Assembly: GCA_017511805.1 (NCBI GenBank)
Contig: JAFWJA010000015.1
Span: forward strand, 323,098-387,097
DNA from: Bacilli bacterium
GTDB lineage: Bacteria > Bacillota_I > Bacilli_A > RF39 > UBA660
DNA: 64,000 nucleotides
Reading direction: 5' to 3'
The notes under the pieces are model-generated. The model was not told the DNA's origin and made no database searches. It saw only the letters and a program-made list of their open reading frames with translations. Position numbers and translations under genes: made by a program. This document shows positions 1,444 through 55,000 of the stretch, piece after piece. The first letter of the stretch is position 1. The number at the start of each line of letters is the position of its first letter.

Positions 1444-1470
1444 ATAGATATCAAATGATATCTATTTTTT
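1444..1470. terminator. Bidirectional rho-independent terminator between the convergent ClpB-like gene and dnaJ.
   Basis: Hairpin ATAGATATC-aaat-GATATCTAT flanked by an A-run (left) and a T-run (right). It overlaps the dnaJ TAG stop. Confidence 0.5.
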
Positions 1471-2601
1471 AAAATACTTTTTATATTTTTTAAATTTATC
1501 ATGATCATCAAGTGTAGTTTCACTTAATTCTTCAAATAATTTCTTTTGTTTTTTATCTAGTTTAGTAGGCATTAATACATTTAATAAAATATATAGATCA
1601 CCACGTTTAGATGAATTTACTATTGGTACTCCTCTACCTTTAATTCTTAATCTATCATTATTTTGAGAACCAGCTGGTATAGTAAGTTTAATATCACCAT
1701 CAAGAGTACTTACATCTTTAGTACAACCAAGTACTGCTTCTGTAATAGTAATTGGTAAAATAAGATATAAATCATTTTCATTTCTATTAAATAATTCATC
1801 ATCTCTAACTTCGAATTCTACATAGATATCTCCGTTAGGACCTCCATTGAATCCAGCTTCTCCTTTTTCTTTTATTCTAATTTGAGTACCTGTATCTACA
1901 CCTGCTGGTATAGTTATAGTAACAGTTTTTCTCTTTCTAACTTTACCTTGTCCTTTACAATCAGTACATCTTCTTTCATATGATTTACCAGTTCCACCGC
2001 AATCAGGACAAACAGTTTGACTTTGGAATACTCCAAATAAAGAGTTTTGTTGTTTTACTATTCTTCCTGATCCATGACATGTTTCACATGTTTTTTCATT
2101 AAATCCACCTTTACCATCACATGTTGAACATGATTCAGTTAAATCTAATGTAATGTCTTTTTTAGTACCAAAGACTGCATCTTTAAAATCAATCTCCATC
2201 TTATAAAGAACATCTTCACCCTTAGTAGGTCTATTTTGTGATTTCTTATTTCTAAATCCACCACCAAACATACCACTTAATATGTCACCTAAATCTATAT
2301 CATCAAAACCAAAACCAGATGTATTAAAGCCACCATAACTTCCGTATGGATTACCTCCTGCTCCTCCACCCATGTTTTGATCAAATGCTGCATGTCCAAA
2401 TTGATCATATGTCTTTCTTTTACCTTCATCAGATAATACTTCATATGCCTCTTGAACTTCTTTAAATTTATCTGCAGCATCAGGTTCTTTATTTAAATCA
2501 GGATGATATTTTTTAGCAAGTTTTCTAAAAGCACTTTTAATTTCTGCATCTGTTGCAGACTTAGAAACACCAAGTACTTCATAATAATCTCTTTTTGCCA
2601 T
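1462..2601 (-). CDS. dnaJ: Chaperone DnaJ (Hsp40).
   Basis: J-domain with HPD (KKYHPDLNK), a Gly/Phe-rich linker, four CxxCxGxG zinc-finger repeats and a C-terminal substrate-binding domain. Confidence 0.95.
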
Positions 2602-2602
2602 A

Positions 2603-4393
2603 CTACTTCTCCTTACTTATCTTAACAAATTCATCTATTAATGAATCAAAATACTTAATTGCATCTTCATATACTTTACTATCTTCTAAATCAAATCCTA
2701 GTACTTTAAAAGCATCTAACGGATATATATCTGATCCTAAAGATATAAACTTAATATAATTATCTAGAGCTTTTTTATCACCTGATAATATTTTAGCTAC
2801 ATTAGCAGACGCAACTGAGATACAAAATGAATAATCAAATAGATAATAATTCATATAATAATGACTTCTTCTTATCCAACCTGTATTTCCATTTTCATCT
2901 ATTATAACTTCTTTACCATAGTATTTTTCTAATGACTTTTGATCTAAATTATTCATATAATCTTTTGTTAATGCGTTTCCTTCTAGAGAATAATCGTAGA
3001 ATTCTCTTTCCATTTTACCTTCTCTAACAGCTCCAAAAAGATTAGATAAAAATACATTTAAAATATTATTAATACCAGATAGTTTTTCTTCTTTTGTTTT
3101 ACCATGTTCTGCTAAATAACTAGATAATAAACATTCATTTGTTAATGATACAACTTCCGCAACTAATTTAGTTACTTCTCTATATTGCATTTTGTTATAT
3201 TTCATAACAAATTGATGATGAACATTATGTCCACATTCATGAGCTATTGTACTAACTGAATCTAAATCATCATTAAAACTAAGTAATATTCTTGAATCAT
3301 GATCAGTTGTACTAGCAGAATATCCACCAGAACATTTTCCTTTATATTCGCAATAATCTATATAATGATTATCAATTATTTTGTTATAACAAGAAATATA
3401 TTCTTCACCAAGTGGTTTAACAACTTCTCTAATTAAATCATTAGCTTCTTCTATAGTATATTTTCTATCAGAAGAAGTTAAATCTAATCCTAGATCATAT
3501 TGATGTAATTCTTTTAAACCTAAAGTCTCTTTAAATACTCTATAGTATTTTTGTAATACATCTACATTATTTTCTACTGCACTAGTTAATGCATCATATG
3601 CTTTTTTAGACATATGATTATTAAATAATTTTGCATCCCATGCATCTTTAAATTTATGTATTTTTGAATTTGTATTATTTGCTTTAACATATGAATCTAA
3701 AAGTGAAGCTGATGTTCCTGCATGCATAGCTAAAACATCTTTATATTTTTTAAAGACTTCTTTTCTTATATTTTGATCTTTATTTTTTAATAATTTTCTT
3801 AAATTAGTAGAAGTAATAACAGTATCTTCTCCATCTATTTTAACAGTTCCATAATCATTTTCATTGTTTAATAGATTAGAAGATATATCTTCATAATTAT
3901 TCATCGCAGTTGTTAACTCATTAATAATTATTTCTTCTTTTTCTGATAAAGTATGTTCTTTACCTTTATATAGTTCTTCTAATACAAATTTAAATTCTAA
4001 TAAATCTTTATTATCAAATAACTTATTAAAATCTTCTTTAGATAGTTCTATCAATTCTGGTTCAAAGAAACTAACATTAGTAATATATTCACTATAAAGT
4101 ATAGTAGCTTTATTCTTTCTATCTATATTTTTAGCAATACCTAGTTCTTCATCATCTTTTAAATATGCATATATATAAAGATTTTCTACTTCATTTTGAA
4201 CTTCTATATCAAATTTTAAGAACTCATATAATTTAGCACTATCTTTTGTACATCCTACATATTTTTTTAATTCTTCTACTTCTTTTTTTGTTTTATTATA
4301 ACTAACTTCATAATCTTTATCATCTTTATAAAAATCACTTAAATCCCATTTATATTTATCAGGTACTTCACTTCTAGATTTATATTTATTCAT
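2603..4393 (-). CDS. pepF: Oligoendopeptidase F (M3B family).
   Basis: 596 aa. HEXXH zinc motif in [11 protein letters not shown]. Overall M3B-like length and composition. GGAG RBS before the ATG. It lies between dnaK and dnaJ. Confidence 0.85.
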
Positions 4394-4442: not shown

Positions 4443-6266
<1,824 letters not shown>

Positions 6267-6276
6267 TTATTCCTCC

Positions 6277-6813
6277 TTATTGATTTACCTTAACCATTGC
6301 TGGTCTAATAACTTTATCTTTATAAGTATATCCTTTTTGTAATACTTCTATTATTTCATTATCCTTTTTACCATCAACATGATCTGTCATAACAGCTTGA
6401 TGCTTATTAGGATCAAATTCTTGTCCAAGACACTCTATTTCTCTTACCTCTTCTTTATTTAAGATATTTATTAAATTATCGTATATCATTTTAAAACCTT
6501 TTTGATAATTTAATACATCTTCATTATCTGAAGTAACATTAAGTGCTCTTTCAAAATTATCTACAACCTGTAATATCTCCATGATTAAACTTTCAGAAGC
6601 ATATTTCATCATTCTAGCATTTTCTTCTTCTTTTCTTCTTACTGTATTAATCATTTCTGCTGTAACTCTAATATTCTTATCTTCTAATTCTTTAATCTTA
6701 ATATTAAGAGCGTTTATTAATTCTTTTTCTTTACTTTTCTTTTATTTTTTATTTTCTTTTTTTTCTTCATGAACTTCTTCTACTTGTTCTTCTATAAACT
6801 TTTCTTCTTCCAT
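6277..6813 (-). CDS. grpE: Nucleotide-exchange factor GrpE. The full-length frame starts at an ATG overlapping the hrcA stop (6811-6813). It is interrupted by an in-frame TAA at 6742-6744 (codon 24). The track ORF (6277-6654) is only the C-terminal 125 aa.
   Basis: Minus-strand translation upstream of the track ORF gives MEEEKFIEEQVEEVHEEKKENKK*KKSKEKELINALNIKIKELEDKNIRVTAEMINTVRRKEEE. The segment after the stop is the canonical GrpE paired-helix region (compare E. coli ...RVKAEMENLRRRTE). The C-terminal four-helix and beta-sheet domain is present. Confidence 0.8.
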
Positions 6814-7802
6814 TATTGATTTCCTTTCAAATTATTCTTTATATAATCAAGAAGTGAAACTACTTTATCATATTCCATTCTCTTTGGACCTACTATAGCA
6901 AGTGTTTTTTCTTGGTTATCTATCATTACTTTTGTTTTAACAATAGTTAAATCGTCATCAAATTCATTTTCTTTTCCTATATATATATTTATACCATCAT
7001 CAACTTCTTCTATTTTACGAAGTGATTCTTCATCTAACTTATTAACTATTTTCTTAATCTTATCTACTTCATTAAATTCTGGAAGTTCATATATTTTATT
7101 CTTACCTCTTACAAACACTTCATTATCACTTTTAAAGTTATTAAATGCATTATAAAAGGCATTATAGATAGTTTCATAATTTAATATATAATTACTAATT
7201 ATTGGTTTAATTTCAAATTCTAGTTTAGAACTAACTTCACTAATAGGAGTTCCCACTATCATTTTATTAATTAACTCAACTATCTTTCTAACTTCTTCTA
7301 AATTACTTCCCTTAATATTAATAGTTTTATTTTCAACATGACCAGTATCTGTTACTACTATAGCAATTACATTTTCATCATTTATAGGAATAACTTCAAC
7401 TTGTTTAAGTTTAGTCTCACTACTCTTATTATCTAATATAACTGCTGTATAATTAGTCATATCTGAAATAATTTGTAAACTCTTCGAGATAGAGTCAGAT
7501 AACTCTAACTGAGTATTATTAAAGATCTTTTGTAAGTTTAATACTTCTTCACCATTCATCTCTTTTGGTTTCATTAAATGATCTACATAGTACCTATATC
7601 CTTTTTCTGATGGCACTCTACCCGAACTAGTATGGGTTTTCTCTAGATATCCTTCTTCTTCTAGAGCTTGCATCTCATTTCTAACTGTCGCAGATGAACA
7701 ATCAAGTATTTCACATATGTTCTTAGATCCAACTGGTTTAATAGTTTTAATATATTCTTCTACAATCAGTTTAAGAACATTTTCTTTTCTCTCACTAAGC
7801 AT
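6813..7802 (-). CDS. hrcA: Heat-inducible transcription repressor HrcA.
   Basis: N-terminal winged-helix motif (VGSKNICEILDCSSATVRNEMQALEEEGYLEKTHTSSGRVPSEKGYRYYVD). CIRCE operator immediately upstream. Conserved hrcA-grpE-dnaK order. Confidence 0.9.
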   Translation of the reverse strand: MLSERKENVLKLIVEEYIKTIKPVGSKNICEILDCSSATVRNEMQALEEEGYLEKTHTSSGRVPSEKGYRYYVDHLMKPKEMNGEEVLNLQKIFNNTQLELSDSISKSLQIISDMTNYTAVILDNKSSETKLKQVEVIPINDENVIAIVVTDTGHVENKTINIKGSNLEEVRKIVELINKMIVGTPISEVSSKLEFEIKPIISNYILNYETIYNAFYNAFNNFKSDNEVFVRGKNKIYELPEFNEVDKIKKIVNKLDEESLRKIEEVDDGINIYIGKENEFDDDLTIVKTKVMIDNQEKTLAIVGPKRMEYDKVVSLLDYIKNNLKGNQ

Positions 7803-7835: not shown

Positions 7836-7864
7836 ATATTAACACAAAAAATTAGCACTGTCAA
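7836..7864 (-). promoter_or_regulatory. Sigma-A type promoter for the hrcA-grpE-dnaK operon, overlapping CIRCE.
   Basis: On the minus strand, TTGACA (7864-7859), a 17-nt spacer, then TAATAT (7841-7836). AGGAGG RBS before the hrcA ATG. Confidence 0.5.
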
Positions 7865-7878
7865 TATGTAAGTGCTAA
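7852..7878. promoter_or_regulatory. CIRCE operator (HrcA binding site).
   Basis: TTAGCACTG-N9-AAGTGCTAA compared with the consensus TTAGCACTC-N9-GAGTGCTAA. Two mismatches and perfect 9-nt spacing. Confidence 0.75.
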
Positions 7879-9462: not shown

Positions 9463-9481
9463 GTGTTTTATCACTCTTTTT
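9456..9481 (-). terminator. Rho-independent terminator after the KilA-N gene.
   Basis: AAAAAGAGTG-ttttat-CACTCTTTTT hairpin. It overlaps the TGA stop. Confidence 0.4.
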
Positions 9482-10325
9482 GTAGATTAATTAGGGTTTG
9501 ATTATTTTTAAGCAAATCCATTTGTCTTCTTGCAGCATCATTTAATTTTACTAGTCTTTCGCTCTGACTTAAACCAGCTTTTATAAACTCAGAATTAGAT
9601 ATTTCTAGGTTGTTTAGTATAACTAAATGTATTAAATCTGTATAATCTCTTATATTACCTGTTTTAGAAAGTTCAGAATTTTCTTCTCTCCATTCTTTTG
9701 CAGTCACACCAAATAGTGCTACATTTATAACATCTGCTTCTTCAGCATAAATATAATGAATTTGTTTATCTGTTAATTCTGGAACTAAATAATTTTTAAT
9801 TGCATCAGTATGAATTAAATAATTAACTTTAGAAAGAGTTCTATTAACACTCCACTCTATCTTATTTTGATAAGATTCATTCTTTTTTAATCTTTGAAAT
9901 TCTTGTATAAGATATAGTTTGAATTCAGGACTAAGCCAACTTGCGAATTCAAAAGCAATATCAGGATGAGCAAAAGTACCAACACTTGATTTTCCTCCAC
10001 TTGGTATAATACCAATAGCATTAAAATCTTTCCTCCATCTACTAGGAGTCATAGTAAATCTATTATATGGAACTTCTTTTATTTTAATTCCGTGGGATTC
10101 CACGGAATTAAAATTAGGATTATTTAGTTCTTCCCATAAAGAATAAAAAAGAAAAGAGTTTTTATTAGACATCCAATTTCTTATTACCCCTGATGGATCA
10201 TCACTATTTGCATACTTAGCTAAATCTGTTAAAGATATATAGTCTTCATTATTTAACCTCATTACTTTAATATTCCTATCCTTTACTTTTATAATTGCGC
10301 TAATTTCATTCTTCGTAGATTTCAC
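9471..10325 (-). CDS. KilA-N domain protein (phage/mobile-element associated DNA-binding domain) with a C-terminal domain of unknown function.
   Basis: N-terminal region ...NIKVMRLNNEDYISLTDLAKYANSDDPSGVIRNWMSNKNSFLFYSLWEE matches the KilA-N fold signature. The track start is a GTG. An alternative ATG lies at codon 22. Confidence 0.55.
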   Translation of the reverse strand: MKSTKNEISAIIKVKDRNIKVMRLNNEDYISLTDLAKYANSDDPSGVIRNWMSNKNSFLFYSLWEELNNPNFNSVESHGIKIKEVPYNRFTMTPSRWRKDFNAIGIIPSGGKSSVGTFAHPDIAFEFASWLSPEFKLYLIQEFQRLKKNESYQNKIEWSVNRTLSKVNYLIHTDAIKNYLVPELTDKQIHYIYAEEADVINVALFGVTAKEWREENSELSKTGNIRDYTDLIHLVILNNLEISNSEFIKAGLSQSERLVKLNDAARRQMDLLKNNQTLINLQKE

Positions 10326-10370: not shown

Positions 10371-10400
10371 AAAAAAAGAAGAATTTGTTATTATTCTTCT
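10371..10400 (-). terminator. Rho-independent terminator directly after (and overlapping the last codons of) the giant surface-protein gene.
   Basis: AGAAGAAT-loop-ATTCTTCT hairpin followed by T8 on the minus strand. Confidence 0.55.
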
Positions 10401-13400
10401 CTTTTTTTCTTAATAGCAACTAGACCTAAAACTATAACTATTAATAGTAAAATTAGTACAATATAATTATTTCTTATTAAACCAGTTCCAAATGTTAATA
10501 TCAATGTTGCATATGTTTCTGCTGTTCTTGTTACTTTTGTATTATTATTTAATAATATATTATCACTAACACTATTTTCATATATTTCAAAGTCAATTTC
10601 TTTATTATCTTGACCAACTAATTTATATTGTCCTGGACCTAATCCATACAAGTATAATTTACCACTTAATGTATAGATTTTTTCTTGTCCACTACCCTTA
10701 CTATAATTACCTATAGTGTCTTCATCAAAATTAACTATATTATAAGAACCATCACTTAATTCATATAATTTATAATATTTATCATCCCTTAGACTAGTTC
10801 CATCTTCCATTTGATAAATAATTATATTTTTAGGATTAGTTTCTGTTCCTGTAATATTTGCTAAGAATTTATATATAGCTCCTCCTAGTCCACTAGGTGC
10901 TTGATCATTAACAATATTTATTCCAGCTGAAACATTATAACCAGTTGTTGTTAATGTATGACCATTTGTATAAATATTAACATCTATACCAGATGGTTTT
11001 ATTAAATCTGCTTCTAAAGCATAATCTTTTTGAAGTGATATAGTCGCTATTGAATTAGCTACTGCATAGTTAACTGCAGATTGTAAACTAGCAAAGTTTG
11101 TATTATTTACAACCACTACTACATCTTCTTCTCCAAGTGGAGCAAGTGTAGAACTAGTATAAGGTATATCATCTATTGTATTTGGATTTCTAACTTCTTT
11201 ATATCCTGGTTCTACATCTTTTATTGTTCCAATTACAGATCCTGTTCGACCAGATATAATTCCATCATAGAAATATATATTAGCACTATTATTTGTATTA
11301 TTAATACCATAACCTGTACCTAATATATATGGGTCAGTAATAGATGGTGTACCACCTTGTTCTCCGATATTTATAATACCAGTACTTGTATTATAAATAG
11401 CATCTCCATCAGAAGTAGTATATGTTCCTGATTTAATATTTGTTGTGCCACTTGAAGTATTATTTAATACATTACCTGATGTTGTTATGTATGTACCATT
11501 ATTAGAAGTAATTGTACCAGAACCAGTATTACTAAATATTGTACTTGTATTATTAGCAGTAACACTGTTTAATTCAATACTACCACCAGAACTACTTACT
11601 GTAGTAGCAGAATTAATGTTAACAGTATTAACTGTAACATTATTAGAACCTGATACTCCAATAGCAGTTCCAGATGCAGTAATATCTAAACTAGAAATAG
11701 TTGTTGTTCCTGATCCATTATTACTAATACCACTAGATCCTTGAATAGTAGTTCCTGAAATATCCATATCACCATAGTTATTAATAATAAGTGTTGAACC
11801 AGTATAACTTCCTCCAATTATAGTTAAATCACCAGTATTGATTATTCCTCCAGAATTAATATTATTATATGGAGAATTATATCCATAATTTAGTACAAAA
11901 TTGCTTATATTATTAAATGTACAATTATCTAATGTTAATGTACCAGAGTTATACGCTACAGCTTCATATGTTGATGTAATATTTGTGATAGTAGCAGTAC
12001 CATTATTATTAATAATACCACTTATACCACCATTAAATGTTCCACCTGTTATTGTTGCATTACCATTTACACCATTACGAACAATGGATCCTGTATTTCT
12101 AGAACTCCAAGATGTATCACCTTTTTCTAAGAATGTTCCTCCAGAAATATTTAGAATACCATCACTAAATATAACTCCTCCAGTATATGCTAAACTATCA
12201 TTGACTCTTTCTATACCTGTTAATTCTCCTCCAGTAATAGTAATTTCACCAGTTGATGAACTATATATTAATGGATCATTGAAATAATGTGGAGCAATAT
12301 TATAATCATAACATGTTTCTGAATTCTTTTTAACTACACCACCAGTAATTTTAATCTTACCAGTACTATTAAAAGCGGTTTCTACATAAGTACTTACTTC
12401 ACCACCATTAATTTCAATTTCATTAGTATTTTCTATTAAGTTAGCACCAAATAATGAATTACTCATAGTCAATTTACCATTATTTATTACTACTTTACCT
12501 GTATTAACTAATAAATTATTTGTAGTATAATCTAATGTCTTTAAATATGTACCACCTTCAAAAGTAAGTGTTCCATTATTTTCAAATATTTTTGAAATAT
12601 TACTTGTAATACCACCAGTACCAACTGAATCACTAGTCTTAGTATTATCAGTCATGGTTAATTTACCATTATTAGTTAAGAATAAAGAATTATTTGTAGT
12701 AATTAAGTATCCATTTAGATCTATTGTAATATCTTTAGTACTACCAACTACTACAGCATTTTCATTTGGTAATACACTAGCTTTTCTTAGTAATAATAGT
12801 GTATCTCCGTTTGACGCATCATCAATTGCTTCTTGAATTGTGTAATATTTATCTTGCGTAGATTTAGTAATATTTTGCATTACATACGTTCTATCTAGAT
12901 ATTCATTTTCTAAACCATCTACTGTTTCATTTATTATTTCATAATTATCTTCAAGATTAGTAATAGAACCACTATGAGCAGTATTACCTATTAATAATCC
13001 ATCATAGAAATTAATAGTAGCATTATTATTAGTATTATTTAAACCAACATTATTTCCTTTAATAATAGGATTAGTTTTAGATACTGTTCCATCAGCATGA
13101 ACACCTAATGTAATAGTACCTGATCCTGAATTATTAATACCATAATTAGAAGCATCTATATCAGTAGATAAGATATTAATATTACCTGTACCAGCTGAAC
13201 CAATACCTATTTGACCAATTATAGATGTATTTTGATCTATAGTTAATGTTCCTGTACCAGAATTAGAAATATTATTTGCAGAAGAACTTGTACTAGTAGA
13301 AGTTAATGTTGAATTAGTTATTGTAGCATCTGCTGTATTTGTAATTGTTGTTCCTGATGAAGTAATTGAAGTATTATCAATTGTTAATGTTCCATTATTT

Positions 13401-16400
13401 TCTAAACTATATCTACTAATTGAAGTTAAGTTTGAATTAGTCATTGTAGCAATTGCTCCAGAATAATTGACAATTGCAGAATCAAAACTTGAAGTAATAT
13501 TATTTATATCAATTGTTCCATAGTTATGAGCAATTATACCATTTGAACCAACGAATGAAGTTCCATCAATATTTGCTACTGCATTTAATTTATTCTCTAA
13601 GAATAATGATGCATGAATATCTCCCCAGTATCCTCTTGAACCATCTTCTCTAACAGTTCCTCCATTAAGATTAACTTCACCATAGTTTACTATTCCATAA
13701 TAAAGATAAGAATCTGAATTATTTGGATAATATCTACTCATATGTCTAAAGTCTATATCAGTAAATGTCATAATACCAGTTGCTTCATTATATATCATAT
13801 TAATCTTACTATCATAATGATCTTCTTTAGTAACTTTTATTTCATCACTTGTAGAAGTAATAGTTCCTGTATTATAAATAATCTTTGTATTATATGTTAA
13901 ATAATGACTATCATTTGATATTAATGTTCCATCATTATATATTATCCAAGAAGACATTCCATCTATACCAGTATATACTTTAATATTATCAGTATTCATT
14001 GTTCCTGAATTATAAATCATATCTGTACTATTATTAGAAATTTTCTTTATATCTAAATTTGATAAAGTAATATTATTACCATTATCTATTACTTTAGAAC
14101 CTGCGCTTTCAATATAACCAGGAATAATATCACCAGATGTTTCATCTACTTTTGAACTAGTAATAGTGAAATTACCATCATTTTCAAATAATAATGAATT
14201 ACCAGCAGATATCTTATATCCATCTAAATCTAATATAACTTCTTTAGATGAACCTACAGTAATTGAAGGTTCACTATTTGTAACAGTTAACTCTCTTAAT
14301 AATTTTAATGTATCTCCATTTGTTGCATTATCTATACCTTCTTGAATTGAATAATATTGTTCATGTGTTCTAGTATTTTCAACTGTATACACTTTATCTA
14401 AATATTTATGTTCTAATCCATCTACATTTTCAAGTATTATGCTATATCCTGATTCTATATTAGCAAGTGCTCCATTTAGTGCAGTTGTTCCTATTAACAA
14501 ACCATCATACATATTTATAGTAGCATTAACATTTGTATTATTTAGACCATTATTTCCTTTAATACTTGGATTTGTTTTAGAAACTGTTCCATCACTTACT
14601 CCTATATTGATAGTGCCAGCACCTGTATTATATATACCATTTAATACACCCTCAATAGTATTATCTTTTACATTAAGTGTTCCATCACCTGTAAATTGAA
14701 TACCATTTTGTGAGTTACCTGTAATAATATTATTATCTAATGTTGTAGTTCCTGAACTTGAACTAATAATACCATATTTACCTGTTAAAGTTGAACCAGT
14801 TACATTAGTAGTTCCAGAACCACTAAGTGATAATGCTGCTATTCTATCGTCATATGAACCAGGACTTCTTGTACTAATAATATCAGAATCAGTAACTGTT
14901 AAATTACCACTACTAGATAATGCTGTTGGATCACCCTTAATAGTAGAATTTGTTACTGTTAATGTACCACTATTTGAACTTGTACCTGAATTAACAGTTT
15001 GAATAGTAGAATCCACTATTTCCATTGTTCCATAGTTTTCAAATCCATTCCAACAATCAGATGTAATATTATCAATTTTAGCATATCCACTATTCTTAAT
15101 AATATATCCTCTTGATGATACGATTACTGTATCTGTAATATAAATATTACCATTTTCACGGTTATATGCAAATAATGAAGGATATCTATTACCATTATTA
15201 GATAAGTAATCTTTTAGATTTGCTCTACCACCATTAACATATATAGTTCCATAGTTTTCAAGTCCACCTGTTTCACGATTACCATCTTCTTTTTCAAAAT
15301 ATACATTATTTAATGTTACTAATCCAGTAGCTTCATTGGTAATTAATATATCTTTAGTATAACCTCCACTAGAAATCCATGCTGTAGTCATTAATTTACC
15401 ATTATTCATTGTCATAGTTCCAGAATTTCTAATAATTTGTGTTGAACCTGAATATATATCTGAATCTGTAATATTCATTGTACCTTTATTATTAATAATT
15501 TCTGTAGTCATATTATAATCATATCCAATTGATGTATAAACATTAGAATTATCAATGTTTAAAGTTCCATTATTTTCAATAAGATTTTGATATGTTTTTA
15601 ATTGATAAGATTTAATCATATCATATGTTAATGTACCATTATTAATTATTACTTTTTTAGAATATCCAACTATATATGTATCATCATTTAATTCACCATT
15701 ATATATATTAAGAGAACCATTATTTACTAAACCACTTTCTTCATTATATAGTTTAATAAAATGATTATCCATATTTATATTAATAATTTTATTTTCATTA
15801 ACATCAATAGTATTAGCAGCTTCTATGTCTTTTAGTAATACAATTTCAGTTTCTTGATTATTAGGTACTGCATTAATTGCTCCTTGTAATGTTGAATACT
15901 TTGTATCACCAATTCTAGCTACATACTCATCACCAGTTGGCTCATAATCAATTGGTTTTAATACTACACTTTCTAAAGTATCACCTTTAGTTACATATAA
16001 ATCATAGTTATCTGGAACATCAGTTATATGACCATTTATACTATTATTTACTTTACCTACCATTTTACCATCATAATAATTAAATTCTGGAATAGTATTT
16101 TTTGAGTAATTAATAGCTATAGCATTATTAGTAGCTTGTATTAATGGACTAGTTTCACTAACTGAATCTTCATTATCTCCAACAGTTAATTTACCGTAAT
16201 TAATACTAACACCTGTTGTATAATTTTCATTTGTACTAAAGTCACCTTTAATTGTTAACTCTGGTGCATTATTGTTATAATAGCATGAACCTGAGAATAC
16301 TCCAGTAGAATTAGTATTATTATTTGTAATACTACCTCCATCAATATTCATAGTTCCATAGTTATAGATTGTATTAGTATTAGAAGTACCTGCTGTAATA

Positions 16401-19400
16401 ACATCGGTATTCTCCATATTCATTGTTCCTCTACAAGGTGCATAGTAATCATCATAACCGTTTGTAATACTATGATGATTTGCATTAAATGTAGAATCAG
16501 AAATATTAACTATTCCATAGTTTTCTACATTCCATTCAGTATGTGTAAGATTACTTCCAGTTATATCAACTTCACCATCGTAATTATATATGTTAGAACC
16601 TCTTGTTCCACCCATTGTAGAATCTTTAACAATTATTTTTCTATATGAACCACTTCTATTATATATTCTGTCATTAATAATAGAATTATCAAATGTAATA
16701 GTACTTACTACACTTGATTGATTAGAATAGAATGATTCATTTGCAATACTATTTAATCTACTATTTTTAACAGTTAAATTATTATTAGTATCTTGATATA
16801 TATCTAATCCTTGACCATTTGAAGTAATATTATTTAATACTAAATCATTTATACTTCTATTATGAACATTTTTACTATTTGAAGAAGTATTTTCAAGCTT
16901 ATATCCTTTTATTTCGTCTTCGTTAACACCATCATTTAATATACCAATATTATTTGAAGAATACATGGCAATAGTACCTGATCCTTCAATAATATCACCA
17001 GATTCTGTATTATAAATACCTCTATTGCTATCTTTTAATCCTTTTAATATTCCATATTCTCCAATTGTTAATATACCTTTATTAGTAATAACATTGTATG
17101 ATCCAGCTTTATCTAGACTAATAATACCAGATTCTATATCAAGTTTAGCATCAAAATTATTAAATATTACAGAATTAGTTGTACTGGAAACATTTCCTGT
17201 AGGAATTGCATCTATCTTTATAGCATGTTGGTGTATAAACTCATTAAAGTTATATCTTGCAACATCAACATTATAATTTAGTTCAATTTCATCTGTTTTT
17301 AAAGTTCTATCATATATTTTAATACCATATATATAACCATTATAATTAGAACCACTTCCACCATCACGACCTAATCTAGTATTTGATAATGTACCCCAAT
17401 AATCTTTATTTGATCTCTTTTCTAGTTTTGTGCCATTATAATAAACTTCATAATCATCATTATCATAAGTAATTGCAATATGTTTAATTCTTCCATCTGC
17501 ATAATCAGATGGTAAATTAAATGTATAAGTACTTGTTGTTCCTACAATTATATATCCAGAATATACTCCAAATTCTATTTTTTCACTAGAATCTCCTAAA
17601 TATATAACTTGATTATTAGTATTTAATGGTTTAATTAATAATTCAACTGTTTCATTATTACCTGTAACAATTGGAGTATTAATAGTAGCATAACTATTTG
17701 ACCCATTAAAATACATTCCATTATCTTTATATGTTACATCTTGTAAACTAAAGTTATTACCATTACTTGAAATGTCTTCCCAAACATTTTCTGTATCTCC
17801 AGGATTTAATCCATCAAAGAATGCTAATAAGTTTTTATTATTATAATCACTAATACTATAAATGTTATTAGCATTTTCTATAGTTTTTTCTGATGCATTC
17901 TTTCTAATTGGATTTTTAGAATTAAATGTAATAGAATTTAGTGAACATCCAACAGTATAAGCACTTGGAGATGGTCCATGATAAACAATCATTTTGAAAT
18001 AATAATCACCTGGTTCATCTGGAGTTTCAACACTATAGTCATAACTCTTACCAGATGGAGTATCTATATCAAATTTTTCATAGGTTACAAAATCATCATA
18101 TCTATTTTCATCTGATGTAGAAAAACCAATATAAACATCACCCATATCTCCACCTACGTAATCATCATATGTAGTAATATTTCCTGTTACACTTCCATAA
18201 CTTGCTGAATTAATTGTTTCTTTATAAACAACTGAAGTCATTGTATTAGCATAACTTCTAACAACACTAACAGGATTATTACTATATCCAGAAGCATTAG
18301 TTATAGTAAAATTAGTATCTAATGATTCAACATTCATAGTATGTGCATCTGGATTTCCTCCACCTGCTATATAAATTTGATATGCTTCATCATATTCTTC
18401 ATCATATTGTTCTTGTAAATCAGATACACATTCTTCTGCAGCAGAAGTAATTCTTTGATATTCTTGTTCATATCTTATTAAATCTCTATTATAATCTGCA
18501 TCACTATGTACTAAATCATCTTCATATTTACTATCTATGATTTTCAAAGATCCATTATTTTTAATAACATAATCGTCTTTTGATGTAGTTAATGTATAAC
18601 CATTTAAATCAAGTACTACATCTCTTGTAGGTACTATTTCAAGTGGATTAGTTAATGTTATATTTCTAAGTATTTGAACTGTATCAACATCTTGATTCAA
18701 TACTGGGACGTTATATGTTGCAGTCGTAACTCTTGTAATATCATCAAGTTCTTCTACAGGGTATTCTTCTCCATAACTGTCTATTGAACCAATATAATTT
18801 ATAGTAAATTTATCATTTCCACGGCCAATACTACTATCTTTTCTATATCCTATATGTACGTAATTAATTCTACCTGCAGTTAAAGTAACTGTATAGTTTC
18901 CTGAAGATTCTCCTGATAAATATACAAATCTTCCTGTAGTATTATCATATTCTGGTGCTGTAGGATTGTCAGTAACAGTAATGTATCCAATATCACAATT
19001 TGATTCTGAAGAAATAGTTAGATTAAAGTTTAAATCTAAATCTTCTGCAACATTAGTCAAATCATATTCAAAATATGAATGTGCTGTAGAATAATCAACC
19101 CACGCATTATTATTTTCATAACCTCCTGCTCCATTAGGAACAAAATAATAATCACCATTTTGTGTTACATCAACTGATTCATAATCAAAACTATTCTTAG
19201 CTGTTTCTATTGATGAAATTATGAATGAATCTGGGTTAGATGCTCCTGTACCTGTACGTGCATAACATAAGTGAATATAGTTAATCTCGTTTGGTATCAA
19301 TTTAACAGGATAGTATTTATCACCAATATTTCCTGATATATAAATAGCTCTTCCTTCTTTATCATTCATTGAAGGCATATCACTATTATTTTTTACTGTT

Positions 19401-22400
19401 ACATATCCATAACTATAACCACCACTTGAATTTACTCTAGCTTTCATTAATAAATATTTTTGCTCAGAAACATTTGTTAAATCTATAACCATAAATGAAT
19501 GAGCACTAGATCTATCAATACGAGAATTACTATTATATAATTCATTATTTTCATTCTTAACAAACGGATAACCTGTATCTGAGAATAATGTTGCATCTTG
19601 TAAATCTGATAAATAAGTAGGTTTATATTTTCCAATATAAATATCATTTATAGAGAATAATTCAGGTTTATAATAATCTACTTGTGTTTTTATATGAAAT
19701 AAAAAGTGAACATAATATTCTTTTCCATTTTCTAATAATTTAGTATAATCTGTAGCAGCTTTTGAAGCTTCTATTTTAAACATTAAGTTTTCATCACTTG
19801 TAATATCTGGCATATCAGGACTATCAGTTATATATACATAACCATAGTTACTATTATTCGTACATCCACTATAACAATAGTAATAGTAATAAGCATCTTG
19901 TTCAGCATTAATAGTTAACATTTGTGGTTCTTCATAATTAGTTAAATCTATCTTTATATAAGAATGAGCTGTTGTTCCTGCCAAAGCAGTTGTATTGTTA
20001 CTATAATCCCTATATCTATTATTATTTGTATTTTGTAATTTACCAGTTGATTCATCATATATAAATCTATATTCCGAATCACTTCTTACTTGTTCAATTA
20101 AAGGTTTTGTATAATCAACATCTTCATAACTACCATTCTTACTATCATCAGTCGCACCTTGTACTTTAGTATAATAAGTAGATCTTATTCTTGCTTCTGC
20201 TTCTGCAAGTTGTACTAGTATTTCTACTTCTTTTCCTGGTATTAAATCAGATTTAACAGTAGTATTGTATAGATATGGTGTATCATCTACATTTCCTAAA
20301 ACTGATGTAGTAATACCTATTATTCTTCCATCATAGAAATTTAATGTTCCATCACTTTGAATACCATATACAGCTCCTTCAACAACTGGCGCTAGTGTAG
20401 ATACTTCTTGTGGTGCAGGTCTTTCATCATGTCCAACTATTAATGTTGCTCCACTAGCATTATAAATTCCTACTCCTGACGAATATATTTTACCTGGTGT
20501 TTCAGCTGTATCAATAACTTGTAATTTATAAAAATTATTAAATGCAGTAGATTCTGTTCCAGTAATAGTTTTCCCATTTATATCTAATAAAACACTTTGA
20601 CCTACTAGAATATCATTACTTTCTTCTGTGTTATCTATCATTTGAATATGACATGAAGTAGTACAATCTGTACTTTCTAATGCCTCACCTATAGATTCAT
20701 ATTTTTTTATTTCTTGATCATTACTATCTAATGTTCTACATACATAGTGTTTAGGTGGTGTTGTTATAGCAATACTATCACTGCTAACACGATCAACATT
20801 ATCATATACTTCAATTGTAATTGTATAATCATTTAATTCTTCTAAATTAGTAACTGTATACTCTTCTTCTAATTCGTGAGTATCAGCAACAATATTTTGT
20901 CTAGTATATACTAAAACTCCATTATTATATACTTTATATGTTTTTAAACCGGATTCATCATCTTTTATATTGATTTTGATTGTAGCTGTTATCGGAGTTA
21001 TTTCAGTATTAGTAAGTGAAACTATTGTTGGATTAATTTTATCAATATTATCTATATCATGACTTGTTTCTTCTGAACTAATACTTGATTTAACTGAATA
21101 AGCATTTACTACAGAATTATCACTAACAACAAAAGGCACTGTATATAATACATTTTGTCCTCCATCGATATTGTAATAATATGTATAGTCTTGATGTTCT
21201 GATGTAATTGTTACTGTTACGTTGTCTCTTACCCAAGTTGTAGGAGTATGACTAATTGATGGTGTTTCAACTAATTCAAATGAACTATATAAAGTTAAAT
21301 CACTTGTTACTGGTGTACTAAATATATATGGTTCATTATTTAGTGTCCAGTTAAGAAATATATTATGAGCCTTTGTTGGTATATTAGCTGGTGCTGAAAC
21401 TGTATCATTATAATCAACATGATCAATTGCAAATGGTACATCACCATTCATAAATGTTACTGTGTAACTATTTATTGTATAAACACTATGAAGAATAATA
21501 TTATCAGTTATTGGTGTATTGAAGTTATATGCTGGTCCATTTTCAGTTAAACTCCAATGACTAAATGTATATCCTGTTTTACTTGGACTAGTTTCTGGTT
21601 CAGTAGCAGTATTGTTATAATCAACTTTTTCTATTTCACCAAATTGATTTTCTCCATCCATAAATGTTACTGTATATTGATTTATTTGATATATAGCTTC
21701 TAATGATATAGTGCCTGTTGTTCCAGTACTAATTACATATGGATTATTAGTATTTGTACCATCATTCCATCCTATAAATGTATATCCTGTTTTGCTTGGA
21801 TTATTTATTGTTATGTCTGGACTTTCTATTGTATATTTATTTGGATTTGTTACTCCTTCTGGTAAAGTTCCTCCATTATAATTGTATGAAATACCATATT
21901 CTATAGGAGTATAATGTGCAGTTAATGTTTTATTACCTGTTGACCCATGTTCTATTATAAATGGATTTTTTGGATTCTCTGTACTTTCTGTCCATCCTAC
22001 AAATGTATATCCTGTTTTGCTTGGATTATTTATTGTTATATCTGGACTTTCTATTGTATATTTATCTGGATTACTAGTTACTGTTCCTCCATCTAATACA
22101 TAATCTATTCTATATTCATCAGCAGTAAATACTGCGGTTAATGTTTTATTACCTGTTGAACCTGCATTTAAAACATATGGATTATTAGTATTAGTACCAT
22201 CATTCCATCCTACAAATGTATATCCTGTTTTACTTGGATTATTAATTATTATTGTATCTGATGTTATATAGTATTTATTTGGATTTGTTACTCCTTCTGC
22301 TAATGAACCTCCATTATAAACATAATCTATTCTATATTCAGTTGGTGTATAATGCGCAGTTAATGTTTTATTACCTGTTGATCCATGTTCTATTATAAAT

Positions 22401-25369: not shown

Positions 25370-25466
25370 AACAAACACTTCCTATTTTCTATTATTTATT
25401 CTTATAATAATTATAACATTTTAGTAATAAAAATAAAAGAAAAAAAGTACATTTTTTTGTACTTTT

Positions 25467-34896: not shown

Positions 34897-35754
34897 TTAT
34901 TTATCTTTTTCTATTTTTTCTTGTTCATCTATATATTTATATTTTAGATTATTATTTGAATTAATTATAGTTTTCCCTAAGTTCTTTTCAATATTTTCTC
35001 TTGCAGCTTTAGAAGCACTTCCACCCATTTTAGCTATTATTTGATTTTGTTTTAAACCTTGCGGGTTATGTTCTTTAACAAGTTCCCTAGTAGCAGCTTC
35101 ACCCAGGTCAGTTAATATTACTTCAAGATCAGACATATTATCTCTTAAAGATTCTTTTCTTATACCTTTAAATTCTTTATATTCTTTAGCAGTCATACCT
35201 GACCATTCTTTATAAATATCATTTGTAAGAATAGCATATTCTACTCTATCTTTAACTCCATGTTCTTCCCAAGTTTTAGTTAATTTTTTTCTATTTATAA
35301 TAGCTTTAATTCTAGCTTCAATCCATTCTAAAGAATAACCTTTTTTTAAGTAAAAATCTACCATTTCATCAATTCCTATAGATGGATCAAAAACTTCATC
35401 AACTTTTTGTTTTCCTAATTTCGCTAACCATAGCTTAAATGGTTCTGCTTTTGGTGAAGGGACTGACTCAATTAATCTAAATATTCCTTCAGTATCTAAA
35501 GTATCTGTCAAGTATTTCTTACCATCCTTAGAAGATTTTAATTTCAGTTGTACACAATTAGTGTACAACTCACTTCCCTCTTCTGTTAATCTTCTTTTTA
35601 ACATATTCCAATAATTTCTTGGATTAGTACTTTCAGTTAACGCTGCAATCACATCTACCACACTAAAATAATATTCTTCCTCCTCTTTATTCCAAATACT
35701 TCTTATTTCTTTTCCTTCAAATAAATTTGTAATTGTTTCTAGTTTGTTTTTCAT
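34897..35754 (-). CDS. Bro-N domain protein of the DinD (DNA-damage-inducible protein D) type; phage-derived antirepressor-like.
   Basis: N-terminal ...LFEGKEIRSIWNKEEEEYYFSVVDVIAALTESTNPRNYW matches the Bro-N signature. ~285 aa, like DinD. Confidence 0.5.
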   Translation of the reverse strand: MKNKLETITNLFEGKEIRSIWNKEEEEYYFSVVDVIAALTESTNPRNYWNMLKRRLTEEGSELYTNCVQLKLKSSKDGKKYLTDTLDTEGIFRLIESVPSPKAEPFKLWLAKLGKQKVDEVFDPSIGIDEMVDFYLKKGYSLEWIEARIKAIINRKKLTKTWEEHGVKDRVEYAILTNDIYKEWSGMTAKEYKEFKGIRKESLRDNMSDLEVILTDLGEAATRELVKEHNPQGLKQNQIIAKMGGSASKAARENIEKNLGKTIINSNNNLKYKYIDEQEKIEKDK

Positions 35755-49005: not shown

Positions 49006-52000
49006 CTACTTCATGAATTCTAGGATACAGTAATTATATCCTGTCAATTCATCTATCTTAGTAACAACTTGATAGTTCTTATCTGTTGCTGTTGTTATAT
49101 CTCCGTTTACTCTTGGTGATGTAGAACCAATTATATAACCATCATAGAATTTAAATGTTCCATTTCCTTGGCTGATACCTATACCAGTAGTAGTTCCAAT
49201 AGCTTCTATATATGGATTAGTAATTGATACATCAGCATTTTCTGTACCTCTACCATCTTCTATACCAAGTACTACTGATCCTCTTGTAATATAGATACCA
49301 TATGCTATATTACCTGAAGCATGTATTGATCCAGTTTCTATAGTTATTTCTCCGCCTTCTGCATATAATCCATAAGATGCACTTTCTGTATCATGAACTG
49401 AAATATTAACATTATTTAATACTGGAGAACCATCTACAGAATATACACCACCAGCATATTTAGAATTATATGTTTCTATAGTTCCACCAGTCATTCTAAT
49501 TGAACCAGATGTACTATATAAACCATATGCATTATTAGAATTATATGCCTTAATAGTAGCATTAGTAACATTAGATGTATTTTCACTATTACTATCTATT
49601 GCTGAGGCAATTTCCGCTCCTGAAACAGTAAACTTATCGCGAGTAGAATTTAAAATACTTGTATTATGAATAACATTAAGTTTTTTATTTCTTTCATTAT
49701 TAAGATTATGAGTTAATATATATTCATTATCAGTTGATATTAATGTACCACTGTTATCAATAGTTGATATTGTAATATCAGTTTCATAGTAATTATTAGC
49801 ATTAGTGTGACTAATAGTAGAATTACTAATTGATAATATTCCAGTATTAGTAATAGTAACTTCATTGCCTTCAGAAGTTGTTTGATATGTAATAGTAGTT
49901 CCATCAATAGTAGTATTACCAGCATTATCTATAAACTTAGTAATAGTACCACCATTAATTATTAGTTCTGCATTTGTCTTAGCATTACTAATTTGACCAT
50001 TAATATTAGTATTAGTAATTGTTGTTCTTTCAGTTGAGTACTTATAATAAGCAATTTGTCTTGATGTTAATGTACAATTTGAAATATTTTCTAGATCTGA
50101 TGAATTACTATAGATAGCATATAGATCACCTTTAATAGTAGAATTTGTTAATGTCATTTTACCATTGTTAATTATACCTATATTATCTACATCTAAATCA
50201 ATATTATCTATAGTCATAATACCATTAGTATCATTCTTAATCGCAGTATCTCCTATTATTTCAATATTACTTATATTTAATGTTCCATTATTTATAATAG
50301 ATGATTCTGATGATCTAGAATTTATAATAGAATTTGTTAATTCACTAGTAATTGTTAAATCACCGCTATTATTAATTGGTTTAAATGTTCTTAAAGTATG
50401 ACCATTTAGATCTAGTGTTAATCTTACTCCATCATATATATAAGATTCATGAGATAAAATTGTATCATCTAACAATTCAATAACATCATCATCATTTACT
50501 TCATTAAATGCTTGTTGAATATTATTATATGTCTTATCTTGTGTCTTATTATGGATAGTATAAGAAGATTCTACTAAGTACGCTATATTCGAATAATCTT
50601 GAGTATAGTTATCTTCAGATTCATATGCATACATAGTTTTATTAATTAGTCTTGGATTTCCAATAAATCCAGTACCACCACCTGCTGGTCCATAATATCC
50701 TGCTGCTCCTCCATAGAAACCACTTCCACCACCAGACATATAATTGTTTGAATTATTAGTTTTATTAGAACCAAATCCAAATGATGGATATATTTGACCT
50801 GTGTTAGCATTTGTCATAGTAGCATATCTACACTTAGTATATGTTCCTGGTCTATTTGTTGTAGCACCATTACCATAGTTTTCACATACACCATTCATTG
50901 ATTTTGCATTACCTGCAGTAAGTCCTCCAGCATGTCCTCCGTCACCAGAGTAATCTGGATATAGTTCGTGAGTAGAAGAACCTCCTCCACCACCTGCAAC
51001 TATTAAGATTGCATTTTCGGCACCTGTTAAATATCTTAATGTGTTAGGATTTGTAGCTATTGATGTTGCTCCTCCACCACCAGCATAAACTCCGTTATAC
51101 TTCATAGTTGAAGAGTTATATTGCCCTGCTGCATATCCACCACCATTATATCCATATGTTGTACTATAAGTCATTTTTCTACATGATTGTGTAGTACATC
51201 CATCTGGTGCTTCAACATCAACACTTTGTCCTTGACCACCTACTGCTATATATAATGTCTCATTCTTATCAAGATATACTTCACCTACTGAATAGCCTCC
51301 ATAACCTCCAGTATTTGAATTACCTAAATATGAAGTATTTCCTCCTTGAGCTCCCCATACCTCAAGTTTATATTTACCTGGGCAATAGATATCAAGAGTT
51401 TGCATTCCATTAGTATGATCATATAAATAAACATTATTTACTAAACTTTCACAATATGCATCTGAATAAGCATATTTTGCATATAATATCATTGAATTTT
51501 GTACTAATGTTTCTGGTGTAACTTTAGTAGAGAAATCTGAATCTATATACCAACCTTTAAATATTAGGTTACTATCTGTATTAATAGGTTCAGGAATGTT
51601 TCCAAGTGCATCACCACGATTATAAATTAATGTATTATCCTCAATTGTTCCAACACTTGATATTAGATTTACTTCAATTTGTTTAGCATTAGCTTTTCTC
51701 TTAATATAAGTAATCTTAGCATATCCATCACCAGTGTTACCAGTCATTGTATATGTACCATCATATGAAGGTACTTTTGAACCACCACCTAATAGTGTAG
51801 TATCGTACATATAATATTTGGATCCTACTAGATATCCAGATGGTTTATATGATGTTGCTGTTAATACGTAGCCAGATCCTCCACCGCCACCTTGTTGGGC
51901 CATTGAAGAACCGCCTCCGCCGTACCAGCCACCGCCTCCGGCTCCACCGACATATGATCCACCTTGTCCAAATGAACCATTTCTACCAGCACCAGTTTGA

Positions 52001-55000
52001 GTACCTCCGTCACCAGCGTCGGACCAATAACCATTCCAGCCACCACCTTTAGAACCAGATTCGCCACCACCGGCACCTCCACCAGATGCTGTTCCAGGGC
52101 CTCCGCCTCCACCAGCGACAATAATTCTAGAATATAAACTACTTGTAAGTCTAATATCAGTAGCTCCTCCACCCATTATTGTACCAGGGCCAGAGCCTCC
52201 TCCATTATAACCTCCATTAGTACCAGAAGTTCCTACATATACGAATAATTCTTGACCTAAAGATAAATCTATATAACCAGCAGAATATCCACCATTTGCT
52301 CCACCTTGAGCTCCCCATACTTCTAATTTATATGTACCTGTACACATAGAAGTAAATTTTTGAGAAGATTTAGTAGGTAAATATGTATATTCTCTTCCTA
52401 TATAGTCTTCACAGTTAATATTTTCATATATTTGATCATCTGGATCAATACTAACTGAATTATCTTCATATGTTATTCTTGCATAACCATTACCTTCTTT
52501 AGCAGTATTAGCAATTGGTTCTGCACTAACATCTTCTGTATTTCTATTTTTATACTTTTGTAAGTACATTTGCATTTCATCAGTTGTTTCATATACTTCA
52601 TATCCTTCTCTAATAATATCTATACTATCAGGAGTTCCTTTTATATATCCTTTTAATATACCAGAATAGAAATATACTTCTCCATCTAATCTATATACAC
52701 TATATAGACCACCTTCAATAGAAGGATTTTCAATAGAAACAGAATCATTTTCATTTCCTATTACTACAAGTGAATCTTCATTATTTTGATATATACCATA
52801 TAATTCACCTATTATAGAACCAGTATTAAATTGTAATGATTTTCTACTAGTTTGTGTATTACCTATATATACACCAATGTTTTTAGAACTAATATTTGTA
52901 TTATTAAGTACCATATTTGATTCATAAGTTGCTGCATATATACCATAACCAGTATTATTACCAGTAGTAGTAATATCAACATTAGTTAAATTTAGGTCAC
53001 CACTATATACATTTATACCTGTATCTTTAGCAGTAATACTTGCATCTGTAATAGTTAAACCAACCATTGTATAGATACCTGTACCTACTTCATTAGTTAT
53101 TTCTATATCATTTATATCACATGTTGCATTTGTACCACAATAGATGCCATATTCAGAACCAGATCCTCTAGATATAATAGATACATGATCTATATCTATA
53201 TCACTATAAGCAAAATAGATTCCTGATTGACCAGATTTAATTGATGTATTATATATTTTTACATCATTACGTCTTTCAGCAGTATTCTTACTAGTTGAAT
53301 CATAATATCCTCTTCCAGTTCTTGCAATAAGATCACTTTCATTTATAGTAACTATATTATTACCGTTACCATTATTCATGTATACTGAAGTATAATCGGC
53401 ATTTATTTTTGTATTATAAACGCTAATTGTCGAGTTATATGAATTTGAATAAATACCATATGATCCTTCTAAAGTAGAATCTGTTACATTTAAAGTAATA
53501 TTTTGTCCATTATCAATATAGATAGGATTTGAACTACTTTTAATAGTAGCATTATTTCTTACATCTATAACTGCTCCATTAACATGATTTGATATAGCAC
53601 CATTATAACTTGAGGTAGATAATGTAGAAACAGTTACATATTCTACTGTTAAATTCTTATAATTAGCTACACCACTAGTTTTTATGTTTTGTAAAATACC
53701 ATTTTTAGCTTCACTACTATCTGTAATTATTAAGTTTGAATTGTTTGTAAATGTTTCACTCATAACTAATTTTTTGTTATTTAAATCTAATGTAATATTT
53801 TTACCAGCAGGTATTGTTACTGCATCCGGAACTGAAGCACTTGCTACTACTTTAATAGTACCATTAGCATCTATTGCATCTATAGCATCATCAAAATTAT
53901 CATATCTTTCTCCATCTACTTCTAAGAATCCATCTCTTGATGATAGATAATTTAATACCCAAATATTACTAGCAACATTATATCCAGTCATATGTGCATT
54001 TGATAATCTTGGATTTCCAATATAACCAGATCCTCCACCTCCACCACTATAATCGTTGATTACTGATGTTGATGATTGATCATTTGTTCCACCGGAACCT
54101 CCGCCGTACCAACCTCCGCCTCCGGCTCCACCATAAACTCTATTTTCTACATTTATGGTAGTATCTGCACCTTTACCAAATGTTCCTATTCCTTTTTCAG
54201 GATGTAAGTTATTATGTCCACCTTCAGTTTGTGTACCACCGGTACCATAGTTAGCAAATGTACCTGTATTAACAGAACCATCATTAGCTATATAGCCTCC
54301 TCCTGCTCCTCCAGTACCTCTGTTATAACTTGTAGAGTAATATGAGCCTCCTCCTGCTCCTCCAGCAACTATTAATATTGAATCTTTATTATTTTCTAAT
54401 TCATATAGTTGTCCTGAAGCTGTGGCAATATGTGTAGCTCCTCCACCTGAAACTGATGTAATTTGGTATGAAGACCAATTATTAGTAACTGAACCTCCAC
54501 CATTATATCCACCATCAGCGGTACCAGTTCTACTATTTAAGATTTGTCCTTGTCCTCCAACATTTATATAAAGTGTTTCTCCTTGAGTAAGTTCTATTTC
54601 TCCTTGTGAGTAACCACCTTGTGCTGCAGGGAAATTACTTGTATTTGATGTAGATGTTCCTGCACCCCATACTTCAAGTAAGTATTTACCTGTACATGGA
54701 ACATTAAATGTTTCTTCACCATTAATATATTCATAATCATATACATCGTTTGTATAACATAATCCTATATCTTCACCTAAATATGTAATTCTAGCATAAC
54801 CATTACCAGTTTTAGCAACATCACTAGTTGCTGCACTAGATACTTTAGTTGTACTATAAGTTCTTGTTTTTAAATCTTCTTCAGATGATGAACTTTCTTC
54901 AACAATATCATGATTTTGTCTTAAGTTAACAATAGTACCAGAATATCCATATTTACGTCCTTTTAGAACACCATTATAGAAACTAGTAACAGCACCAGTA

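Follow-up and report, generated by a model that had tools for sequence, protein, structure and literature searches.

Is the grpE gene of this Bacilli bacterium genuinely broken, has a single assembly merely made it appear so, or is the stop codon within it put to use by the cell? The locus that raises this question lies in a 64,000-nt stretch of DNA (hereafter the window), where grpE occupies 6277-6813 on the minus strand as a conceptual 178-codon gene (stop codon included) that is interrupted at codon 24. Its ATG (6813-6811) overlaps the TAA stop of hrcA by one base (TAATG), and translation from this start yields MEEEKFIEEQVEEVHEEKKENKK, then a TAA at 6744-6742, and then KKSKEKELINALNIKIKELEDKNIRVTAEMINTV, after which the frame is unchanged and continues with KKSKEKELINALNIKIKELEDKNIRVTAEMINTVRRKEEE until the normal stop at 6279-6277. 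Translation therefore confirms the original prediction that an in-frame TAA lies 23 codons past a natural grpE start overlapping the hrcA stop. According to the translation and to the AF2 model of a close homolog, the 23 codons preceding the stop (6745-6813, minus strand) correspond to the disordered tail of GrpE together with two residues at the start of its long helix. Beyond the stop, no frame offers an ATG, GTG or TTG until the ATG of codon 54 (6654) is reached at a distance of 88 nt, and this ATG opens an ORF of 125 aa (MINTV...; 6277-6654, minus strand). The conceptual 178-aa protein matches Pfam PF01025 with 162 bits (cut-off 25.8; E=1.3e-47) over profile positions 3-165 of 165, while the 125-aa ORF scores 145.9 bits and aligns to positions 43-165 only. 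The tail, helix and core of GrpE, which are required in one unbroken frame, are thus separated in the window by the TAA. Both the Pfam match and the existence of an intact protein differing from the window product only at codon 24 indicate that this is no chance pattern of ORFs.

The origin of the stop can be traced through near-identical ENA and Logan contigs, which were retrieved by exact look-up of the window's HrcA, DnaK, LepA, a 381-aa protein and a 4,992-aa giant protein. In all of those covering the site, grpE codon 24 is GAA (Glu) where the window has TAA, a difference of one nucleotide at 6744, which is A on the plus strand of the window (T in the gene) and C in every other assembly (G in the gene). 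Ten independent, near-identical assemblies carry GAA, namely ERZ28655227, ERZ27256851, ERZ28655611, ERZ27256859, ERZ28018745, ERZ28653664, ERZ28653799, ERZ28019015, ERZ28019020 and Logan SRR12529293, and the grpE genes of contigs L004-L007 and L009-L012 are identical to that of the window except at gene nucleotide 70 (G there, T in the window). The disagreement is equally solitary over longer distances: among the 46,908 window positions lying under near-identical contigs, 6744 is the sole site at which the window disagrees with all of them. It is also the only mismatch among 50,982 bases shared with the 226-kb ENA contig ERZ28019020:k141_893260 (50,981 matches across window positions 5391-56372), which encodes a 178-aa GrpE, and the lone mismatch over 24,979 nt shared with another contig (L187). 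The intact allele, P0121, which has Glu at codon 24 and otherwise equals the window product, is present on 16 public contigs. An exact look-up in 15 billion proteins found none of the 125-, 110- and 109-aa products of the window, and the TAA allele is likewise absent from all per-sample assemblies of ENA and Logan in the collection. At the level of sequence comparison, these results establish the lesion as a G>T substitution on the sense strand (Glu24, GAA to TAA) that is private to one assembly and not programmed, and the uninterrupted gene as both the population-wide and the clade-wide state.

This outcome also bears on how the stop had initially been viewed. It had been placed in a homopolymer-rich tract, with sequencing error as a candidate cause and AAA as an example of the sense codon to be expected at 6742-6744. 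The tract is indeed A-rich, but a homopolymer-length error is rejected, as the frame is kept and the window differs from the ten assemblies by one G>T substitution with no gaps. Since the lesion is a substitution from GAA, the A-rich surroundings have no relevance as a cause of length errors, and the ancestral codon in the sister assemblies is GAA rather than AAA. Separately, two contigs (L001 and L002) carry seven linked differences from window positions 6780-6816, affecting the first 12 grpE codons and the last hrcA codon (F6I, I7V, E12K and silent changes), with the remainder of grpE identical; this cluster resembles either a short tract of recombination or the outcome of relaxed constraint acting on the tail.

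Beyond the immediate population, a comparison with the grpE of close relatives, which had been suggested as a check on the stop, likewise yields uninterrupted genes. A protein search returned a 178-aa GrpE (P0001) with 98% identity and 100% coverage, and 119 of the best 120 GrpE protein clusters are 159-184 aa in length with an uninterrupted N-terminus, the remaining one (P0072) being 125 aa. The motif KK(E/D)KK(N/S)K runs across the stop site in all close relatives retrieved, save P0072, which starts downstream of the site. K22, K25 and K28 are invariant around the stop site in the aligned relatives, and so the residues flanking the stop are selected together as one polypeptide. In a GTDB scan (one genome per species, that of the window not among them), the nearest genomes are ruminant and other gut "Bacilli bacterium" MAGs of the RGIG and RUG series, the closest of which, MAG RGIG2368, is 92% identical. 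Each of the 20 GTDB relatives inspected has an unbroken GrpE frame that begins with an ATG located at the hrcA stop or immediately downstream of it. A scan of JGI metagenomes for strain-level grpE alleles gave a nearest match of only 69% identity. The short P0072 derives from a second, independently interrupted gene in a relative of about 90% identity (L003, a 592-bp ENA contig, ERZ27291642 k119_999600). Here, the break (L003:88-113) is an imperfect 13-nt tandem duplication, TAAAGAAAAAGAA followed by TAAGGAAAAAGAA, located five codons downstream of the stop in the window; it creates an in-frame TAA plus a frameshift, and the gene caller reports the same 125-aa MINTV... product.

Were the stop put to use by the cell, it would presumably be read through, hopped or frameshifted past as a regulated feature, or else this organism would not use TAA as a stop. 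In principle, AAA-UAA-AAG within an A-rich region would let a peptidyl-tRNA-Lys re-pair 6 nt downstream, and short hops over stop codons are known in E. coli, where they occur with low efficiency. However, a programmed signal would be conserved, and this stop is missing from every relative, including the contig that matches the window at all of the remaining 50,981 positions compared. TAA is also the commonest stop in the window, terminating 23 of its 36 ORFs, hrcA and grpE included (TAG 9, TGA 4); the code is standard, and an alternative genetic code was rejected. The A8 and A6 runs were considered as sites of frameshift bypass or transcriptional slippage, and this was rejected as well, as the downstream GrpE is encoded in frame 0, whereas both alternative frames stop within a few codons and neither regains frame 0, such that a second shift would be needed. 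When the entire window was searched against Rfam at gathering thresholds, no structured RNA or known recoding element was found. Programmed recoding is therefore close to refuted, and it is the least probable of the readings considered here.

A restart of translation downstream of the stop was one of the three candidates put forward in the original prediction, together with sequencing error and nonsense mutation. The latter two remain live, whereas a designed reinitiation is not supported by the features of the site. Pairing energies against the anti-Shine-Dalgarno sequence have a median of -6.9 kcal/mol for 29 window genes and reach -5.9 kcal/mol at the natural grpE start, but only -2.4 kcal/mol upstream of ATG 6654 and -1.1 kcal/mol upstream of the ATA of codon 33 (6715-6717, minus strand), neither of which has a Shine-Dalgarno sequence. 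A dedicated restart signal, in the sense of a ribosome binding site plus a start conserved for the downstream part, is found at neither position, and the alignments indicate that Met54, the counterpart of E. coli Met69, is kept as a structural residue and not for use as a start. The ATA is of interest due to a GenBank record, MBR3116987.1 (P0122; 'MAG: nucleotide exchange factor GrpE [Bacilli bacterium]'), which is located on a 647-kb MAG contig and is the sole shortened member of its 90% cluster. Its 146 aa equal the window GrpE from Asn34 to the end, and its initial Met falls on the ATA (Ile33). The record probably annotates the window grpE locus itself, and its start is likely an annotation work-around that avoids the TAA. 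The lesion would then have led to a mis-annotation, and the record does not count as evidence for initiation at the ATA. In E. coli, AUA initiates at 0.02-3% of AUG (10.1101/063800).

The consequences of such restarts can be estimated from structure. The window GrpE aligns to the solved structures 4ANI (E=6e-36), 1DKG (E=1e-16) and 3A6M, and the AF2 model of the 98%-identical P0001 (mean pLDDT 79) exhibits the expected GrpE layout, with a disordered tail (1-21, pLDDT below 50), a long paired helix (22-70), the two helices of the four-helix bundle (74-91 and 98-120) and a C-terminal beta domain (123-177). In this numbering, the TAA falls two residues into the long helix. A product begun at codon 33 would lack the tail plus 11 of the 49 long-helix residues, and one begun at codon 54 would lack the tail plus 32 of them. 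The downstream Met had been matched to E. coli Met77; alignment to 1DKG and our own count of the E. coli sequence instead place it at Met69. Consequently, a start at Met54 would fall within the conserved helix motif L63-R75 of E. coli GrpE, which contacts the DnaK substrate-binding domain (PMC12915176), and the invariant R49 would be lost. With the exception of the Met77 placement, the claim that reinitiation at this ATG removes about half of the paired helix and probably cripples GrpE broadly holds, as 32 of 49 helix residues and part of the DnaK-contact motif would be missing. In M. tuberculosis GrpE, refolding activity depends on the long helix and substrate release on the tail; DnaK cannot function in vitro without the long helix of GrpE, and mutations of the interface are lethal in mycobacteria (PMC10803776). 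By analogy, a restart product would be badly impaired, although its NBD-binding core would be intact.

The remaining readings have to be weighed against one another. Our preference, with a probability of roughly one half, is that the TAA is a genuine and very young nonsense allele in the sampled gut population. The sister contigs reveal real microdiversity of roughly 1e-4 to 1e-3 per site, and 5.5% of the possible coding substitutions in the window, and 20% of the G>T changes among them, are nonsense. In addition, the clean remainder of the window (95% coding, with two ORFs of about 15 kb intact) argues against a generally error-prone assembly. Against a real allele stand the importance of the long helix and of the GrpE interface described above and the fact that the TAA is supported by a single deposited assembly. 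It is also absent from all per-sample assemblies, which one would not expect of a majority allele in a sampled animal. These latter points lend weight to the converse reading, in which the true codon 24 is GAA, grpE is intact and the T is a base-call, consensus or assembly artefact, that is, an error or a rare minor variant taken up into one assembly (e.g. by a low-coverage spot, a co-assembly path choice or a bin reassembly). We consider this a serious contender that falls somewhat short of even odds. It would readily account for a sole difference in about 51 kb from an independent assembly, for the GAA found in ten other assemblies and on 16 contigs, and for the location of the change within a strongly conserved gene. 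Moreover, single assemblies of this population recurrently show sporadic gene breaks, as in the L003 grpE described above. In a sister assembly (L176), the first giant gene is divided into gene calls of 1,407 and 2,585 aa, and in L005 (ERZ27256859:k141_974142), two G>T changes 2 nt apart (AGA GGA to ATA TGA; R437I and G438*) at L005:5349-5354, equivalent to window positions 4950-4955, split dnaK at codons 437-438 into calls of 437 and 122 aa. The L005 pair shares its G>T class with the grpE change; it is either a multi-nucleotide mutation or an artefact of sequencing or assembly, and it suggests that artefacts of this class occur in these data. G>T (C>A) changes are a known artefact class of oxidised Illumina libraries and constitute a signature of library damage. 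Conversely, substitution errors rarely enter an Illumina consensus. As De Bruijn assemblers keep the path of higher coverage, an error in a long contig (likely the 647-kb one) would need majority read support; no other lesion is visible in 64 kb of A-run-rich DNA with 26.5% GC. Related ruminant MAGs were obtained from Illumina NovaSeq reads using MEGAHIT, with co-assemblies included (PMC8199421), which would favor an artefact if the window belongs to the same RGIG set, but this membership is something that we infer.

Two further readings accept the TAA as real and differ in what the cell is supposed to live on. According to one, the bacterium survives on a shortened, functional GrpE made from ATG54, from ATA33 or through termination-reinitiation after a 23-codon upstream ORF, so that the gene would effectively be split into a tail peptide and a core exchange factor. 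A scanning post-termination ribosome would meet ATG54 first, and the 125-aa ORF still encodes the parts that make the main contacts to the DnaK NBD, namely the four-helix bundle and the beta domain (PMC12915176). Likewise, E. coli GrpE 33/34-197 still binds DnaK and is deficient only in tail-dependent substrate release, and the 90%-identical relative L003/P0072, interrupted independently a few codons away, leaves the same 125-aa downstream ORF. We nevertheless regard this reading as quite improbable. In a genome whose genes normally have a Shine-Dalgarno sequence, both candidate starts are without one, AUA is a very poor start codon, the gap from the stop to ATG54 is 88 nt, and a start at Met54 would cut into the L63-R75 motif and forfeit R49. 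Furthermore, no relative is stably organized in this manner, given the full-length GrpE of 20/20 genomes and 119/120 protein clusters. According to the other reading, which we consider unlikely, the TAA is not only real but at high frequency in the gut of one animal, where the bacterium would live without full-length GrpE, either via a restart product deprived of the tail and of between one quarter and two thirds of the thermosensor helix or via traces of hop or read-through protein at AAA-UAA-AAG, with the Lys/Glu-rich linker between tail and helix being a recurrent break point, as L003 might hint. A recurrent break point is unsupported by the present data, since one additional interrupted allele in 120 protein clusters and 20 genomes is too few.

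If, as we favor, the TAA is a genuine and very young nonsense allele, several inferences can be made regarding its effects. Ribosomes starting at ATG 6813 would release a 23-residue peptide that is roughly the disordered tail, as read directly from the open frame, and the remaining 154 grpE codons would presumably be translated only via rare events. Leaky termination, or a hop of tRNA-Lys from AAA23 to AAG25 across the UAA, may produce traces of near-full-length protein, whereas a weak restart at ATG54, which lies 88 nt downstream, or at ATA33, neither of which has a Shine-Dalgarno sequence, would give a product without the tail and without 11 to 32 residues of the 49-residue long helix that contacts DnaK. 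DnaK itself should still be made, as dnaK has its own strong ribosome-binding site. The cell would accordingly be GrpE-deficient or hypomorphic, a condition that an organism of the class Bacilli may tolerate at the constant temperature of the gut. B. subtilis tolerates the loss of DnaK from 16 to 52 C (PMC8957991), and thus a deficiency in GrpE need not kill a gut organism of this class. For the same reason, the statement that grpE is essential in most bacteria, on which the significance of the stop had originally been based, is too strong for this lineage. Nonsense alleles of this kind are seen among near-clonal genomes, in which selection has had little time to remove them.

The genes surrounding grpE appear to be in good order. 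Upstream lies an intact hrcA (6813-7802, minus strand; PF01628) and downstream an intact dnaK (4443-6263, minus strand), both preceded by strong Shine-Dalgarno sequences, that of dnaK being AAGGAGGA (-11.1 kcal/mol). A CIRCE operator, TTAGCACTT-N9-CAGTGCTAA, is located upstream of hrcA at 7852-7878 (minus strand; 2 mismatches to the consensus, 0.01 chance matches expected), and it is overlapped by a sigma-A-type promoter, TTGACA-17-TAATAT with a TG extension, at 7836-7864 (minus strand; 10/12 matches). The features of a class I heat-shock operon are therefore present, with CIRCE (TTAGCACTC-N9-GAGTGCTAA) at the promoter followed by the gene order hrcA-grpE-dnaK. Next to dnaK are the genes for an M3 oligoendopeptidase (2603-4393, minus strand; Peptidase_M3_N) and dnaJ (1462-2601, minus strand; DnaJ, DnaJ_C and CXXCXGXG domains), and this pair (1462-4393) is possibly co-transcribed with hrcA-grpE-dnaK. 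Elsewhere in the window, two giant ORFs are found on the minus strand. The one at 10391-25378 encodes 4,992-4,995 aa with CarboxypepD_reg, Flg_new and Laminin_G_3 domains and a C-terminal hydrophobic segment, whereas the one at 49006-64000 runs off the window edge, has an ALK_LTK_GRD match and measures 5,695 aa in a sister contig; both products are probably surface proteins. The latter ORF is listed from 63630 only, in comparison to the 5,695-aa sister product, but a second disruption near the window end was rejected, as the frame is open to the edge. Two genes encoding KilA-N/Bro-N domains, which are typical of DNA-binding proteins from phage and mobile elements, are situated amid housekeeping genes at 9471-10325 and 34897-35754 (both minus strand).

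The significance of the locus depends upon which of the two leading readings applies, as the TAA reflects either a knock-out mutation of very recent origin or an error in base calling, and neither entails a new mechanism. In the case of an artefact, the lesson is one of caution in MAG annotation, since one miscalled base would have sufficed to produce a GenBank GrpE entry that is 32 residues too short and implies an ATA start. If the allele is real, a deleterious nonsense mutation was caught segregating in a near-clonal gut population, with a hint that the DnaK system of this lineage tolerates GrpE deficiency, as in B. subtilis. Should it be both real and at high frequency, it would constitute a natural experiment showing what portion of GrpE is required by the DnaK cycle. 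Beyond data quality, the TAA is otherwise of little consequence.

When compared with known systems, the locus is for the most part conventional. The order hrcA-grpE-dnaK with CIRCE and a sigma-A promoter upstream matches the canonical hrcA-grpE-dnaK-dnaJ operon of Firmicutes under HrcA/CIRCE control, the difference being that a gene for a PepF-like M3 oligoendopeptidase lies between dnaK and dnaJ, whereas B. subtilis has a plain hrcA-grpE-dnaK-dnaJ arrangement. The conceptual product is equally similar to canonical GrpE of PF01025, both in its full-length Pfam match and in its predicted architecture, and the TAA at codon 24 is confined to the window assembly. The nearest functional parallels to a truncated form are the engineered tail-less proteins, E. 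coli GrpE 33/34-197, which is well behaved (PMC12915176), and M. tuberculosis GrpE deltaN42 (PMC10803776), both of which still bind DnaK while GrpE-stimulated substrate release is lost or reduced. However, these constructs keep the whole long helix, whereas the restart products from codons 33 and 54 would lack 11 to 32 of its 49 residues, and in the window the tail would be released as a separate 23-mer, unlike in the constructs. The locus also resembles the segregating nonsense and pseudogene lesions and the assembly errors encountered in MAGs, which share the hallmark of one private disruptive change on an otherwise identical background. Nothing distinguishes the window grpE from this general class, to which the breaks in L005 dnaK, L003 grpE and the L176 giant gene provide sister cases. 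The grpE TAA thus belongs to a known class, that of a segregating nonsense allele or an assembly miscall, and represents neither a new translational mechanism nor a new kind of GrpE.
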